This document shows, piece by piece, positions 4,665 through 10,919 of a DNA stretch of 10,919 bases. Location: IMG/VR virus record IMGVR_UViG_2558860161_000005; one strand, given 5' to 3'. Positions within the stretch are counted from its first letter, which is position 1. The number at the start of each line of letters is the position of its first letter. The translations under genes were made by a program, and so were the position numbers. The notes below the pieces were generated by a model. It was given only the letters and a program-made list of their open reading frames with translations, had not been told where the DNA came from and did not search any database. The DNA is from a virus (taxonomy: Duplodnaviria; Heunggongvirae; Uroviricota; Caudoviricetes).

Positions 4665-5072
4665 ATGGAAACAAAAAATTTAACTATCGGCGAACGCATC
4701 AGGTATCGTCGGAAAAACCTCAAACACACCCAAAGGTCTCTTGCTAAAGCCCTGAAAATCTCCCATGTGTCTGTATCACAATGGGAACGGGGTGATAGTG
4801 AACCTACAGGGAAGAACCTTTTTGCCCTCAGCAAAGTATTGCAATGCTCACCAACATGGATTCTATTTGGCGATGAAGACAAGCAACCAACACCACCTGT
4901 TGAGAAGCCAGTTGCCTTATCCCCCAAAGAACTAGAGCTCCTTGAGCTGTTTAATGCACTGCCAGAATCAGAACAGGATACCCAGCTCGCCGAAATGCGA
5001 GCTCGAGTAAAAAACTTCAATAAACTCTTTGAAGAATTACTAAAAGCCCGTCAGCGGACAAATAAAAGATAA
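4665..5072 (+). CDS. dicA: DicA, HTH (XRE-family) repressor of the dicB operon (135 aa)
   Basis: ATG at 4665, stop TAA at 5070-5072; translation METKNLTIGERIRYRRKNLKHTQRSLAKALKISHVSVSQWERGDSEP... matches E. coli DicA as I recall it (135 aa). Confidence 0.9.
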   Translation: METKNLTIGERIRYRRKNLKHTQRSLAKALKISHVSVSQWERGDSEPTGKNLFALSKVLQCSPTWILFGDEDKQPTPPVEKPVALSPKELELLELFNALPESEQDTQLAEMRARVKNFNKLFEELLKARQRTNKR

Positions 5073-5161: not shown

Positions 5162-5238
5162 TGTTTGCATCAACACACCGCACGGTGTTCTCAGCAAACA
5201 GTTCCGCTACCCCAGCGTTAAGGGGAAATGAGGTCCGC

Positions 5239-5553: not shown

Positions 5554-5772
5554 ATGCAGAAACGAGAACCCGTCATCATCGCGCCAGACTATACCGATGA
5601 TGAACTTTATGAGTGGATGCGCCAGAAAATTAATGCAGCGCAGGATCTGAAATGGGCCAATGAAGCCAGGGCTAAGCAGGCTGAAAATCTGTCCGCTCTG
5701 GAGCAGGATATCACCAATCTGGAAAAAGCAGCGGCATTAAGCATTGCCAGAATGATTACATACCCGCGTTAA
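5554..5772 (+). CDS. ydfC: YdfC (72 aa), dicB-operon protein of unknown function
   Basis: ATG at 5554 with SD GAGG (5543-5546); translation MQKREPVIIAPDYTDDELYEWMRQKINAAQDLKWANEARAKQAENLSALEQDITNLEKAAALSIARMITYPR. Confidence 0.8.
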   Translation: MQKREPVIIAPDYTDDELYEWMRQKINAAQDLKWANEARAKQAENLSALEQDITNLEKAAALSIARMITYPR

Positions 5773-6112
5773 TAGCTAACCAACGAAGCTAAGGTTGGTA
5801 ATTAAGGAGTTCTCCACGGGTGAGGTGGAGTGCGTGCGCCGGACACGGGTGAGCATCCGGCACTGACAGTTTACTGAAAGGATATTTCCCTGAAAAGTCA
5901 GACCATAACGCGAAAGCGCACGGCGAGGTAGCTGGTTCATAGATAGCCTGTCGTTAAATTTTCGTCGACCGTGCGCTTCCGGTTGTGGCAACCCGCGAAA
6001 TGGTGCGGCGGTAAGTATGGCGGGGTTATTTCTTCCCCGTTGAGGACACCGGGTTGTCAGGTTGACCATACGCTTAAGTGACAACCCCGCTGCAACGCCC
6101 TCTGTTATCAAT

Positions 6113-6170
6113 TTTCTGGTGACGTTTGGCGGTATCAGTTTTACTCCGTGACTGCTCTGCCGCCCTTTTT
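6113..6170 (+). ncRNA. dicF: DicF small RNA (53-nt core 6113-6165 plus U-tail), antisense inhibitor of ftsZ translation processed from the dicB-operon transcript
   Basis: Sequence tttctggtgacgtttggcggtatcagttttactccgtgactgctctgccgccc followed by ttttt matches DicF as I recall it; it lies between ydfC and dicB as in Qin. Exact ends are approximate. Confidence 0.8.
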
Positions 6171-6339
6171 AAAGTGAATTTTGTGATGTGGTGAATGCGG
6201 CTGAGCGCACGCGGAACAGTTAAAACCAAAAACAGTGTTATGGGTGGATTCTCTGTATCCGGCGTTAATTGTTAACTGGTTAACGTCACCTGGAGGTACC
6301 AGGCACTGCATCACAAAATTCATTGTTGAGGACGCGATA

Positions 6340-6528
6340 ATGAAAACGTTATTACCAAACGTTAATACGTCTGAAGGTTGTTTTGAAATTGGTGTCACTA
6401 TCAGTAACCCAGTATTTACTGAAGATGCCATTAACAAGAGAAAACAAGAACGGGAGCTATTAAATAAAATATGCATTGTTTCAATGCTGGCTCGTTTACG
6501 TCTGATGCCAAAAGGATGTGCACAATGA
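6340..6528 (+). CDS. dicB: DicB (62 aa), MinC-dependent cell-division inhibitor
   Basis: ATG at 6340 with SD GAGG (6327-6330); translation MKTLLPNVNTSEGCFEIGVTISNPVFTEDAINKRKQERELLNKICIVSMLARLRLMPKGCAQ. The track ORF 6235..6528 carries a spurious N-terminal extension. Confidence 0.85.
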   Translation: MKTLLPNVNTSEGCFEIGVTISNPVFTEDAINKRKQERELLNKICIVSMLARLRLMPKGCAQ

Positions 6529-6716: not shown

Positions 6717-6808
6717 AACAGTTCCGTAATAAATATCCGGTTTCATTCTTATATGCCAGCAATGGCAGGGATTTGTTCATCCTTAAATCTGTCATGAGGT
6801 TAAAACAA

Positions 6809-9280
6809 ATGAGTAAAGTCTTTATTTGCGCCGCTATTCCTGACGAACTGGCAACAAGGGAAGAAGGCGCTGTGGCTGTAGCCACAGCCATTGAAGCTGG
6901 CGACGAACGCCGTGCTCGAGCAAAATTTCACTGGCAATTCCTGGAACATTATCCGGCTGCTCAGGACTGCGCTTATAAATTTATTGTCTGCGAGGATAAA
7001 CCTGGCATACCCCGCCCTGCCCTCGATTCATGGGATGCTGAATATATGCAGGAAAACCGCTGGGATGAGGAGTCTGCTTCTTTTGTCCCGGTTGAGACTG
7101 AATCCGATCCGATGAACGTCACTTTTGACAAGCTGGCCCCTGAAGTACAGAACGCTGTCATGGTTAAGTTCGACACATGTGAAAACATCACCGTTGATAT
7201 GGTTATTAGCGCACAGGAATTGTTGCAGGAAGACATGGCAACATTCGACGGACATATCGTTGAAGCGTTGATGAAAATGCCAGAAGTTAACGCCATGTAT
7301 CCGGAGCTTAAGTTGCACGCCATTGGGTGGGTTAAGCATAAATGTATTCCTGGTGCTAAATGGCCCGAAATTCAGGCAGAGATGCGCATCTGGAAAAAAC
7401 GTCGCGAAGGTGAACGCAAGGAAACCGGAAAATACACGTCTGTTGTTGATCTCGCCCGCGCCAGAGCCAATCAACAGTACACTGAAAATTCAACAGGAAA
7501 AATCAGCCCGGTCATTGCTGCCATTCATCGCGAATACAAGCAGACATGGAAAACACTGGATGACGAACTGGCCTACGCTCTCTGGCCTGGTGATGTGGAT
7601 GCCGGAAACATTGACGGCAGCATCCATCGCCGGGCAAAAAATGAAGTTATCGACAACGACCGCGAAGACTGGAAGCGTATCTCGGCATCAATGCGCAAAC
7701 AGCCTGATGCCCTTCGCTACGACCGCCAAACTATTTTTGGCCTTGTCCGTGAGCGTCCGATCGACATTCACAAAGATCCCGTAGCACTGAACAAATATAT
7801 CTGCGAATACCTGACGACAAAGGGCGTGTTTGAGAATGAAGAAACAGACCTGGGCACTGTTGATGTTCTCCAGTCATCAGAAACACAAACTGATGCAGTG
7901 GAAACTGAGGTATCTGATATCCCAAAAAATGAAACCGCGCCGGAAGCTGAACCATCTGTAGAGCGTGAGGGGCCGTTCTATTTCCTCTTCGCAGATAAGG
8001 ACGGAGAAAAATACGGTCGCGCAAACAAACTTTCTGGTCTGGATAAGGCACTGGCTGCTGGCGCCACTGAAATCACAAAAGAAGAATATTTTGCCCGAAA
8101 AAATGGCACATACACGGGCTTACCGCAAAATGTAGATACCGCTGAAGATTCAGAACAACCAGAGCCGATAAAAGTTACCGCTGACGAAGTAAACAAAATT
8201 ATGCAGGCAGCCAATATCATCCAGCCTGACGCCGATAAGTTGCTTGCTGCATCACGTGGTGAATTTGTTGAAGGGATTAGTGACCCGAATGATCCGAAAT
8301 GGGTTAAGGGGATCCAGACCCGCGATTCTGTGAACCAGAACCAGCATGAATCGGAACGGAACTACCAAAAAGCGGAACAAAACAGCCCAAATGCGTTACA
8401 AAACGAGCCAGAAACGAAACAGCCTGAATCAGTGGCGCAACAGGAAGTGGAAAAAGTCTGCACCGCCTGCGGTCAGACCGGCGGCGGCAACTGCCCTGAT
8501 TGTGGCGCGGTAATGGGCGACGCAACATACCAGGAAACATTCGATGAAGAGTATCAGGTTGAAGTTCAGGAAGATGATCCGGAGGAAATGGAAGGCGCTG
8601 AACATCCACACAAGGAGAACACTGGCGGCAATCAGCATCACGATAGCGATAATGAAACTGGCGAGACGGCAGATCACTCAATTAAGGTGAACGGTCATCA
8701 AGAAATCACATCCACCAGCAGGACGTGTGACCATCTAATGATCGACCTTGAAACCATGGGAAAAAATCCTGATGCCCCGATCATCTCAATAGGTGCAATA
8801 TTTTTCGATCCGCAAACCGGAGATATGGGACCGGAATTTAGTAAGACTATCGATCTGGAAACTGCTGGCGGAGTCATTGATCGGGACACCATTAAATGGT
8901 GGCTTAAGCAATCACGCGAAGCGCAATCTGCCATTATGACCGATGAAATCCCGTTAGATGATGCACTGTTACAATTGCGGGAATTTATCGACGAAAACTC
9001 CGGTGAATTTTTTGTTCAGGTCTGGGGAAATGGAGCCAACTTCGACAACACGATTTTGCGCCGTTCATACGAACGGCAGGGGATCCCCTGCCCGTGGCGT
9101 TACTACAACGATCGCGATGTACGCACAATCGTTGAGCTGGGGAAAGCCATAGACTTCGATGCCAGAACGGCTATTCCATTCGAAGGTGAGCGCCATAATG
9201 CACTTGATGACGCCCGTTACCAGGCAAAATACGTTTCAGTTATCTGGCAAAAACTGATCCCGAGTCAGGCTGATTCTTAA
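6809..9280 (+). CDS. Full-length YdfE-like protein (about 823 aa): N-terminal domain of unknown function, acidic linker with a Cys4 zinc ribbon, C-terminal DnaQ-like DEDDh 3'-5' exonuclease domain
   Basis: Likely start ATG 6809 (SD GAGG 6797-6800); the track ORF begins at TTG 6773, and ATG 6794 is an alternative. Exonuclease motifs: D-L-E from 8744, WGNGANFD, HNALDDARY. Zinc ribbon CTACGQTGGGNCPDCG at about 8459-8506. The N-terminus MSKVFICAAIPDELATREEG... is what I recall for the K-12 ydfE pseudogene product, which is truncated there. Confidence 0.8.
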   Translation: MSKVFICAAIPDELATREEGAVAVATAIEAGDERRARAKFHWQFLEHYPAAQDCAYKFIVCEDKPGIPRPALDSWDAEYMQENRWDEESASFVPVETESDPMNVTFDKLAPEVQNAVMVKFDTCENITVDMVISAQELLQEDMATFDGHIVEALMKMPEVNAMYPELKLHAIGWVKHKCIPGAKWPEIQAEMRIWKKRREGERKETGKYTSVVDLARARANQQYTENSTGKISPVIAAIHREYKQTWKTLDDELAYALWPGDVDAGNIDGSIHRRAKNEVIDNDREDWKRISASMRKQPDALRYDRQTIFGLVRERPIDIHKDPVALNKYICEYLTTKGVFENEETDLGTVDVLQSSETQTDAVETEVSDIPKNETAPEAEPSVEREGPFYFLFADKDGEKYGRANKLSGLDKALAAGATEITKEEYFARKNGTYTGLPQNVDTAEDSEQPEPIKVTADEVNKIMQAANIIQPDADKLLAASRGEFVEGISDPNDPKWVKGIQTRDSVNQNQHESERNYQKAEQNSPNALQNEPETKQPESVAQQEVEKVCTACGQTGGGNCPDCGAVMGDATYQETFDEEYQVEVQEDDPEEMEGAEHPHKENTGGNQHHDSDNETGETADHSIKVNGHQEITSTSRTCDHLMIDLETMGKNPDAPIISIGAIFFDPQTGDMGPEFSKTIDLETAGGVIDRDTIKWWLKQSREAQSAIMTDEIPLDDALLQLREFIDENSGEFFVQVWGNGANFDNTILRRSYERQGIPCPWRYYNDRDVRTIVELGKAIDFDARTAIPFEGERHNALDDARYQAKYVSVIWQKLIPSQADS

Positions 9281-9352: not shown

Positions 9353-9604
9353 ATGAGCGAAGTAATCATGATTGTCTCTCCCGGCAAATGGGTATCCGAA
9401 GAGCAGTTAATTGCGCTGAAAGGAATAAAAAAAGGTACGTTAAAAAAGGCCCGGGAAAAATCGTTTATGGAAGGAAGGGAATATAAGCATGTCGCTCATG
9501 ACGGTATGCCATGGGATAACAGTCCATGCTTTTACAACCTGGAAGAAATTGATCGCTGGATTGAGCGCCAGGCATCAGCAAGACCAAGACGTCATCTTAC
9601 TTGA
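9353..9604 (+). CDS. Excisionase-like small DNA-binding protein (83 aa), immediately upstream of int
   Basis: ORF MSEVIMIVSPGKWVSEEQLIALKGIKKGTLKKAREKSFMEGREYKHVAHDGMPWDNSPCFYNLEEIDRWIERQASARPRRHLT; basic; position and size typical of a lambdoid xis; an alternative start is ATG 9368. Confidence 0.65.
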   Translation: MSEVIMIVSPGKWVSEEQLIALKGIKKGTLKKAREKSFMEGREYKHVAHDGMPWDNSPCFYNLEEIDRWIERQASARPRRHLT

Positions 9605-9623: not shown

Positions 9624-10919
9624 ATGAGAGAAGTTGAAATGAAATATCCGACAGGCGTGGAAAACCATGGAGGGAAATTACGTATCTGGTTTGTTTATAA
9701 AGGCGTAAGAGTCAGGGAAAACCTGGGGGTTCCTGACACAGCAAAAAACAGGCGCGTTGCAGGTGAGCTACGCGCCTCTGTTTGTTACGCAATAAAAACT
9801 GGTGTTTTCGACTATGCAAAACAGTTTCCCTCCTCACGCAATCTGGAAAAATTTGGTGAGACTCGACAAGATTTAACCATAAAAGAACTGGCTGAAAAAT
9901 TTCTGGCACTGAAAGAAACTGAAGTCGCAAAAACATCACTCAACACATACCGTGCCGTCATCAAAAATATCCTGAGCATAATCGGTGAAAAAAATCTTGC
10001 CTCATCGATTAATAAAGAAAAATTACTGGAGGTTCGTAAAGAGCTACTGACTGGATACCAGATCCCCAAAAGTAACTATATTGTTACACAACCAGGGAGA
10101 TCGGCTGTAACTGTAAATAATTACATGACAAATCTTAACGCCGTGTTCCAGTTTGGTGTTGATAACGGTTACCTGGCAGATAACCCGTTTAAGGGGATCT
10201 CGCCATTAAAGGAATCAAGAACCATTCCGGATCCTCTTTCGCGGGAGGAATTCATCCGTCTTATCGATGCGTGCAGAAATCAGCAAGCCAAAAATTTATG
10301 GTGTGTTTCTGTTTATACTGGCGTTCGCCCTGGTGAGCTGTGTGCACTTGGATGGGAGGACATAGATCTGAAAAATGGAACAATGATGATCAGGAGAAAT
10401 TTAGCAAAAGACCGTTTCACGGTACCAAAAACACAGGCGGGAACCAATCGGGTCATTCATCTTATTAAGCCAGCAATCGACGCTCTCCGGAGTCAGATGA
10501 CATTAACGAGACTGAGCAAAGAGCATATCATTGATGTTCACCTCAGAGAGTATGGCAGAACAGAAAAACATAAATGCACCTTTGTTTTTCAACCTGAAGT
10601 GTCAGCGAGAGTAAAAAATTATGGTGACCATTTTACCGTTGACTCAATAAGGCAGATGTGGGACGCAGCGATAAAACGTGCCGGACTCCGCCATCGAAAA
10701 TCATATCAGTCGAGACATACTTATGCCTGCTGGTCGCTGACAGCTGGTGCTAATCCGGCATTTATAGCAAACCAGATGGGCCATGCAGATGCGCAAATGG
10801 TATTTCAGGTATACGGAAAATGGATGTCTGAAAACAATAATGCACAGGTAGCTTTGTTAAATACACAGTTAAGCGAGTTTGCCCCAACCATGCCCCATAA
10901 CGAAGCAATGAAAAATTAA
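9624..10919 (+). CDS. Phage tyrosine integrase (lambda-Int family); probable counterpart of Qin intQ, here apparently intact
   Basis: 431-aa ORF from ATG 9624 (the second ATG at 9639 has the better SD). N-terminal arm-type DNA-binding-like region; C-terminal catalytic region with SRHTYACW (His-x-x-Arg) and a C-terminal Tyr in GHADAQMVFQVYGKW. The stop TAA is the last three bases of the window. Confidence 0.85.
   Translation: MREVEMKYPTGVENHGGKLRIWFVYKGVRVRENLGVPDTAKNRRVAGELRASVCYAIKTGVFDYAKQFPSSRNLEKFGETRQDLTIKELAEKFLALKETEVAKTSLNTYRAVIKNILSIIGEKNLASSINKEKLLEVRKELLTGYQIPKSNYIVTQPGRSAVTVNNYMTNLNAVFQFGVDNGYLADNPFKGISPLKESRTIPDPLSREEFIRLIDACRNQQAKNLWCVSVYTGVRPGELCALGWEDIDLKNGTMMIRRNLAKDRFTVPKTQAGTNRVIHLIKPAIDALRSQMTLTRLSKEHIIDVHLREYGRTEKHKCTFVFQPEVSARVKNYGDHFTVDSIRQMWDAAIKRAGLRHRKSYQSRHTYACWSLTAGANPAFIANQMGHADAQMVFQVYGKWMSENNNAQVALLNTQLSEFAPTMPHNEAMKN

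Follow-up and report, generated by a model that had tools for sequence, protein, structure and literature searches.

The dicBF operon and its dicF–dicB segment

The viral DNA analysed here (IMG/VR record IMGVR_UViG_2558860161_000005; 10,919 nt, the whole of which is referred to as the window) contains the dicBF operon of a Qin-type lambdoid prophage of Escherichia coli, with the gene order ydfABC-dicF-dicB-ydfD. The operon carries the genes for DicF, a small RNA (sRNA), and for the protein DicB, which are textbook prophage-encoded cell-division inhibitors. Between the two lies a 14-bp inverted repeat that is part of a 21-bp RNA helix; it encloses a conserved domain related to the STnc100 RNA family, and it most likely holds the RNase III cut known to trim DicF.

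The segment from 5554 to 6528 shows 100% identity to strain A38 and 98.9% to K-12 derivatives, and has a match in 4658 of 5426 complete E. coli genomes. K-12 coordinates were obtained by alignment to MG1655 (NC_000913.3), from which the window differs by a constant offset of 1,643,269. The main features of the operon are:

4665–5072, plus strand: dicA
plus strand: ydfA and ydfB
5554–5772, plus strand: ydfC
6113–6165, plus strand: DicF sRNA, 53 nt (K-12 annotation 1649382–1649434)
6128–6163, plus strand: DicF terminator hairpin, followed by a U-tract at 6166–6170 (from folding)
6173–6193, plus strand: left arm of the long-range helix, with a putative RNase III cut after 6184 (position by arithmetic)
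6304–6324, plus strand: right arm of the long-range helix, ending 3 nt before the dicB Shine-Dalgarno (SD) sequence; expected staggered partner cut at 6314/6315
6328–6332, plus strand: dicB SD (GAGGA)
6340–6528, plus strand: dicB, from the ATG to the end of the stop codon
plus strand, 3′ of dicB: ydfD

DicF matches Rfam RF00039 with 76.7 bits (6114–6165). A preliminary description of this DNA, made from its sequence, had placed the dicB SD at 6327–6330, and the coordinates listed above correct that position.

A conserved long-range helix

The repeat strings quoted in the preliminary description are all present where it placed them, including TGAATTTTGTGATG (6175–6188) and its complement CATCACAAAATTCA (6309–6322), which enclose 120 nt. 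The 14-bp repeat is a real, conserved RNA helix. At the RNA level it extends to 21 contiguous pairs (6173–6193 with 6304–6324, with G·U pairs at 6174, 6189, and 6190) and has a duplex energy of −27.3 kcal/mol. Folding of 5770–6345, as had been proposed, recovers the duplex at this greater length; in the ensemble all of its pairs have probabilities above 0.97 except the outermost, A6173–U6324 (0.82). The 5770–6345 stretch as a whole folds with a z-score of −4.1, and the module between the terminator and the SD (6166–6332) with a z-score of −5.4, none of 200 dinucleotide shuffles being as good.

Homologues were collected by scanning viral contigs with a conserved 22-mer, which gave more than 120 loci and 60 distinct module sequences; a DicB-based search of genome contigs gave six near-identical loci. 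Across the 60 distinct homologues the 21-bp helix is paired in 97.8% of alignment cells, and six of its 21 pairs have changes on both sides. Pairs 6175/6322 (U-A to C-G) and 6186/6311 (A-U to G-C) give the clean compensatory cases, both in loci L094, L106, and L040, and there is frequent switching between G·U and G-C at 6174/6323, 6189/6308, and 6190/6307. The right arm in Rac-type prophages accommodates a one-base bulge. Taking the structure as a whole, 92% of cells are paired, compared with 29–46% after sliding the partner by 1–3 columns, and none of 500 shuffles matches the observed values on any measure. RNAalifold independently predicts the 21-bp helix and the other helices of the module. 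The covariation analysis suggested in the preliminary description thus bears out the duplex as a conserved helix with compensatory changes in homologues.

Three of the viral contigs (L039, L049, and L061) contain only the 3′ half of the module, from ATCCGRCGTTAATTG onwards (P4, P5, and the right arm; see below), fused on the upstream side to unrelated sequence. They lack the left arm, so the long-range helix cannot form; they resemble products of recombination or deletion upstream of dicB.

The enclosed STnc100-like domain

The 120 nt between the repeats are more than a spacer. They form a conserved structured domain of the STnc100 family, and the duplex is the closing stem of this domain with an extension. 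The predicted elements are:

6185–6314, plus strand: STnc100-like domain (Rfam STnc100 match, covariation, and reciprocal model)
6185–6193 with 6304–6312, plus strand: inner closing stem
6197–6212, plus strand: P2, GC-rich
6213–6260, plus strand: P3, variable
6261–6268 with 6280–6287, plus strand: P4, covarying
6289–6293 with 6299–6303, plus strand: P5, with covariation across subfamilies
6217–6223 (CAGUUAA) with the P4 loop at 6272–6278 (UUAACUG), plus strand: putative pseudoknot

The Rfam STnc100 model (RF02076) matches 6177–6317 with 31.3 bits (E = 4.9e-5 in a sensitive scan), below its gathering score of 47, and no gathering-level STnc100 match is present in the window or in 10 loci. Related copies score somewhat higher, with 37.4 bits for a Rac copy and 40.4 bits for a phage-plasmid copy. 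A covariance model built from dicF-linked modules only (R1) finds canonical STnc100 copies at 38–63 bits (E-values of 1e-8 to 5e-15), and homology is reciprocal because RF02076 matches the module and R1 matches canonical STnc100. On these profile comparisons the dicF–dicB spacer is identified as a sub-threshold STnc100-family member. The cmscan alignments span the closing stem, P2, P4, and P5.

Covariation is seen in the closing stem and in P4 among the 60 distinct homologues, and compensatory P4 pairs include GGCGUUAA/UUAACGUC, GACUGUAA/UUGCAGUC, and GGAUUCAG/CUGAAUUC. A GGUGAAU junction, UCACC, an AGGCA loop, and the P5 hairpin CCNGG-AGGCA-CCNGG are invariant across the family. Complementarity between the P4 loop and the strand that follows P2 is kept in every subfamily, by about eight sequence pairs that are unrelated to one another; in addition to the pair in the window these include AUCAGCA/UGCUGAU, CUGGUG/CACCGG, ACUGAUUAG/UUAAUCAGU, UAAUGACUG/UGGUCAUUG, CUGGCU/AGCCAG, and AGCCA/UGGCU. 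Strands paired with their own partners have a mean of 6.3 contiguous pairs, and 4.5 when partners are mismatched. This covarying complementarity is good evidence for the predicted pseudoknot, which is absent from the STnc100 consensus line printed by cmscan. P5 (6289–6303), in all family members, also holds a perfect SD-like GGAGG (within CCUGGAGGYACCAGG) ~40 nt upstream of the real dicB SD.

The possibility that the enclosed region codes for protein was considered and rejected. Module lengths vary between 152 and 178 nt through central indels whose sizes do not keep to multiples of three, which marks the region as non-coding.

Processing of the dicBF transcript

DicF is cut out of a polycistronic transcript: RNase E generates the 5′ end of the 53-nt form, and an RNase III cut between transcript positions 813 and 814 generates that of a 190-nt form (PMC10448788). 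A 72-nt DicF has an alternative 3′ end that arises from RNase III processing of the full-length mRNA (PMC5069750, PMC9438474). The RNase III sites of the operon were reported by Faubladier, Cam and Bouché in 1990, as summarised in later papers (PMC5069750, PMC9438474, PMC10448788, PMC2777011), and a review lists the dicA–dicF–dicB intergenic regions among RNase III substrates.

By arithmetic (6113 + 72 − 1) the 3′ end of the 72-nt form maps to 6184, at the centre of the 21-bp helix, with 12 pairs below it and nine above. The 190-nt species would similarly start at 5976 (cut 5975/5976), in the right arm of a stem at 5903–5988. With the same transcript numbering the dicBp start falls at 5163, a short way downstream of a promoter-like TTGACC...CTAATC pair, and the quoted 1,608-nt transcript would end at 6770, beside a terminator-like hairpin at 6754–6767; the arithmetic is self-consistent because both ends adjoin such sites. 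RNA-seq coverage at NC_000913.3 position 1649470, flagged by its authors as a known site, is zero reads in two wild-type replicates and 26 in an rnc mutant. This position corresponds to 6201 in the window, just inside the helix.

RNase III substrates require ~20–22 bp, or two helical turns, which are cut on both strands with a 2-nt stagger (PMC6212723). The helix provides 21 contiguous pairs, or 28 with one bulge if an extension between the U-tract and the SD forms. In vivo, both base pairs lying between the staggered cuts are formed, and at least one of them is G-C or C-G (PMC6212723); given a cut after 6184, these would be G6183–C6314 and U6184–A6313, in agreement with the rule.

The preliminary description had proposed the long duplex as an RNase III site, and this is supported because the 72-nt 3′ end falls at 6184 and an rnc-dependent site at 6201. 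The helix most likely holds the RNase III cut known to trim DicF, and the RNase III reading is essentially the processing site known since 1990. The comparison with mapped DicF ends that the description had called for therefore places an end in the 21-bp helix, and it places none in the 9-bp stem that was also singled out; the 5903–5926/5965–5988 stem, to which the 813/814 cut of the 190-nt species maps (5975/5976), was not picked out there.

A model for RNase III cleavage of the extended closing stem

The conservation and covariation of the helix, the homology of the domain, and the intergenic region's RNase III-dependent processing described in the literature are together probably best explained if the 21-bp helix is the extended closing stem of an STnc100-type domain and is cut by RNase III. 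In this model a compact, pseudoknotted domain of the family separates the DicF terminator from the ribosome-binding site of dicB. In transcripts that read through the terminator, 6173–6193 would pair with 6304–6324 over 21 bp, and perhaps over 28 bp with pairing between the U-tract and the SD. The outer 12–13 AU-rich pairs, which correspond to the repeat as first described and are found only in copies directly after a DicF-type terminator, would lengthen the 8–9-bp closing stem to about the two helical turns required by RNase III.

The exact cut positions, a cut in the second strand, and any effect on dicB translation or stability are what we infer from this arrangement. Cleavage in the left arm after 6184 would yield the 72-nt DicF, and the right arm would probably also be cut near 6314/6315 in the usual 2-nt staggered double cut. 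A single cleavage event would then cut the downstream message off from DicF and from the ydfABC RNA upstream, and would excise a domain of ~130 nt. The basal duplex left after the cut has an energy of only −6.9 kcal/mol and for that reason should fall apart, and the remaining dicB-ydfD mRNA would begin with a leader of ~25 nt before the AUG, and a stable helix would no longer adjoin its SD.

Several observations weigh against this model or limit its precision. Few lineages account for the compensatory changes, L094, L106, and L040 being a single one, and independent substitution events are few because the homologues are closely related. An A·C mismatch at 6178/6319 occurs in four distinct variants (10 loci), and a C·A mismatch at 6189/6308 in three variants. 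Position 6184 derives from the quoted length of 72 nt and the annotated 5′ end, not from a printed coordinate. If the transcript starts at 5163, a quoted 1,146-nt species (PMC10448788) would end at ~6308, which is in the right arm and does not match a simple staggered partner of 6184. The RNA-seq site at 6201 is of low resolution and comprises 26 reads only, and the zero wild-type reads there weigh weakly against a stable excised RNA under those conditions.

Genomic contexts and the function of the domain

Within E. coli, a weak match confined to 6160–6324 of the window identifies a Rac-type prophage, in which the module has 80% identity and ends 19 nt before kilR. Among the collected loci, 90 have the dicB start codon and 21 that of kilR within 15–27 nt after the module; seven loci have an isrK-C4-antirepressor RNA train after it, four a small zinc-finger-like open reading frame (ORF), and the two plasmid loci small membrane proteins. 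The sequence before the module is always ...TTTTAAAG, which is the U-tract of a terminator of the DicF or DicF-like kind.

Several loci have unusual arrangements. A Rac-type prophage of strain KKa019 (L008, 2952–3006) has a DicF-like terminator RNA before the module and kilR (34.4 bits, compared with a gathering score of 48), so a unit of DicF terminator plus module is common to the Qin and Rac early-left operons. In two loci (L096, 578–1057; L063, 4732–5165, minus strand) four co-oriented RNAs (DicF, an STnc100-like module, IsrK, and C4 antisense RNA) lie upstream of an antirepressor-like ORF. In a 90-kb phage-plasmid (NZ_CP086513.1; L009, 2252–2428, 2981–3142, and 4657–4771), and also in L088, STnc100-like modules are situated among genes for tRNAs (Asn, Thr, Ser, Ile), with small ORFs just downstream of the modules; the copy at 2252–2428 is weak (21.9 bits, E = 0.0015). 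The layout in L009 looks like tRNA-style punctuation of a polycistronic transcript. A further locus (L134, 2305–3367, minus strand) has four tandem STnc100-family copies in ~1.06 kb, each with a different pseudoknot pair.

Such contexts raise the question of whether the helix mainly closes a functional RNA, either a trans-acting, Hfq-associated sRNA resembling STnc100 and PasD or a protein- or ligand-binding domain, with RNase III merely releasing it and dicB a bystander. STnc100, from Salmonella and E. coli, and its relative PasD are described in the literature as prophage sRNAs with targets, and Hfq association or base pairing in trans has been claimed for them. Canonical STnc100 copies stand alone, with an 8-bp closing stem and their own terminator; the tandem array and the copies among tRNA genes, together with the invariant junction nucleotides and the covarying pseudoknot, also speak for a function of the domain itself. 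However, a consensus scan finds no plus-strand promoter-like site near the module, and coverage at 6201 in the rnc mutant with none in the wild type is the opposite of what a stable excised product would give, though expression was very low. We regard this alternative as possible, if somewhat unlikely.

The dicB ribosome-binding site

The preliminary description also proposed that the duplex acts as a translational gate for dicB. The predicted accessibility of the SD shifts too much with the transcript boundaries chosen to speak for such a gate. The gate would be a compatible consequence of the RNase III model, in which the helix and the pairing between U-tract and SD keep the dicB SD closed on read-through RNA, and toxic DicB is made only after RNase III cleavage or opening of the helix. 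The element concerned is:

6166–6172, plus strand: terminator U-tract plus AA, which might pair with 6326–6332 (UUGAGGA, including the SD), with G6325 bulged

This extension is part of the minimum free energy (MFE) structure of 6166–6332, the right arm ends only 3 nt from the SD, and the module is always just upstream of a start codon. The SD has a mean unpaired probability of 0.05–0.28 in uncut RNA and 0.79 in an mRNA starting at 6315. RNase III unmasks a ribosome-binding site in the lambda N leader and in adhE, which are precedents for such a gate. Against it, the extension is weak, with three of its seven pairs being G·U and a pair probability of 0.26–0.55 that depends on the boundaries, and the predicted partner of the SD likewise varies with them. 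In the cut mRNA a predicted local hairpin (6321–6328 with 6335–6342) would bury the AUG. The leader downstream of the module differs between gene classes, and in the kilR class the extension falls short of the SD. The literature consulted yielded no experiments on the translation of DicB in rnc mutants. A gate is thus a tentative proposal, with the odds on present evidence against it.

A broader and still less probable interpretation takes the whole STnc100/PasD superfamily, including the copies in the dicF–dicB segment and the kilR leader, as a compact pseudoknotted modular cassette, with invariant nucleotides at its junction and a peripheral stem that varies, that is not an ordinary base-pairing sRNA. 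Lambdoid phages and phage-plasmids would use it either as punctuation for the RNase processing of polycistronic transcripts, as tRNAs are, or as a protein or ligand sensor controlling a toxic gene immediately downstream. If so, a third and hitherto overlooked RNA element would be encoded in the dicBF operon.

Hairpins upstream of dicF and neighbouring features

Two stem-loops between ydfC and dicF were also analysed:

5903–5926 with 5965–5988, plus strand: long interrupted stem with a lineage-variable apex (5929–5962) and a putative RNase III cut at 5975/5976
6051–6087, plus strand: 9-bp hairpin, with four additional apical pairs (6062–6065 with 6074–6077)

The 9-bp stem is present as first described (GGGTTGTCA at 6051–6059 with TGACAACCC at 6079–6087) and is real but weakly significant and unremarkable; the hairpin alone folds with a z-score of −2.3, and 6 of 200 shuffles are as good. 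The 5903–5988 stem folds with a z-score of −3.6, and none of 200 shuffles is as good. Among 62 variants neither stem has compensatory changes, and because both are nearly invariant, covariation neither supports nor refutes them. The arms of the 5903–5988 stem are conserved around an apex that is replaced wholesale between lineages, the pattern expected of a stem whose arms matter.

The 9-bp hairpin might itself be a processing determinant, for example by guiding where RNase E cuts (6112/6113). RNase E generates the 5′ end of DicF 25 nt downstream of the hairpin, whose sequence scarcely varies, with an A·C mismatch at 6052/6086 in six of the variants; stem-loops are also said, in the title of a paper cited in PMC9438474, to guide RNase E cuts in other sRNAs from 3′ untranslated regions. 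Set against this are its modest folding score and lack of covariation, a rival pairing of 6020–6026 with 6084–6090 that competes for the same bases, the absence of any mapped end within it, and a length too short for RNase III. Such a role is improbable.

A chance or DNA-level origin of the repeats, as a protein-binding or recombination site, is rejected as highly improbable: the repeats are perfect palindromic pairs in DNA and the truncated modules suggest nearby recombination breakpoints, but only 0.017 perfect inverted 14-mers within 200 nt are expected per 10.9-kb window (1% of simulations under a first-order Markov model), the right arm tolerates a bulge, the structure is embedded in a covarying RNA fold, and the several G·U positions, at which the substitutions in homologues would be A·C mismatches on the other strand or in a cruciform, are meaningful only for plus-strand RNA, which excludes the DNA-palindrome reading.

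In the global MFE structure an upstream segment at 6005–6026 (GCGGCGGUAAGUAUGGCGGGGU) pairs with 6143–6163, the 3′ half of the DicF terminator stem, and displaces the 5′ half of the terminator. This predicted pairing might act as an antiterminator, an alternative fold that would determine whether transcription continues into the module and dicB.

The leader had been called GC-rich, which holds for the region upstream of dicF (55% in 5815–6110, compared with 46% for the whole window) and not for the dicF–dicB part (44%). A small hairpin at 5775–5799 is located directly 3′ of the ydfC stop codon; the two K-12 differences within it (C5780T and G5797A) each exchange Watson-Crick and wobble pairs and retain the pairing. 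Elsewhere in the window, an intact 835-residue exonuclease (6773–9280), an excisionase (9353–9604), and an integrase (9624–10919) are kept, which in K-12 are pseudogenes or disrupted by IS2, and an IS1 transposase gene (1794–2297) is situated upstream of the immunity region.

Comparison with known systems

The locus is that of the 1990 dicBF RNase III sites, and by arithmetic the mapped ends fall in the 21-bp helix (6184) and in the 5903–5988 stem (5976), such that two known RNase III events are now assigned to specific conserved helices. The literature consulted, which did not include the original 1990 paper, does not describe the enclosed sequence as a conserved structured domain or link it to STnc100, kilR, or other contexts. 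New here are the assignment of the spacer to the STnc100 family with a putative covarying pseudoknot, the extension of its closing stem into an RNase III substrate, and the presence of the cassette before both dicB and kilR, the latter encoding the division inhibitor of the Rac prophage. A poorly understood but very widespread family of prophage RNAs is thereby linked to a defined cis context, the predicted pseudoknot refines the structural model of the family, and concrete mutations are now available for asking whether RNase III cleavage controls the production of DicB and KilR.

The module in the window shares with STnc100 (RF02076) the GGUGAAU junction, a GC-rich P2, a variable P3, a covarying P4, the 3′ part UCACC-NGGAGGCACCN-GGCACC, and a location in prophages. 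The inner closing stem is GCAUGGUG/CACCAUGC in the window and GAUGYGGUG/CACYGCAUC in STnc100. Unlike the canonical copies, which end in a terminator (AGCCCCTCTCCGGAGGGGCTTTT-type; model positions about 170–206), the window copy has none of its own: no terminator-like site follows the right arm in the window, and the dicB SD and ATG occupy its place. Its closing stem is longer by about 13 AU-rich pairs, and it is located in an operon, directly after the DicF terminator.

Small RNAs are freed from longer transcripts by RNase III cuts in a long stem in Campylobacter (CJnc190; PMC8687705) and Salmonella (ManS; PMC11745405). The window differs from these in that release and stability of the enclosed domain are our inference, and the RNA-seq point at 6201 disfavours a stable product.

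The pL operon of phage lambda has an RNase III helix in the N leader, immediately upstream of the SD of an early-left-operon gene. The window helix likewise lies directly before an SD, and as in the N leader and adhE its cleavage would remove upstream RNA and could alter translation. However, there is no N/nutL system here, and rather than forming a simple hairpin the helix closes a 110-nt domain with multiple hairpins.

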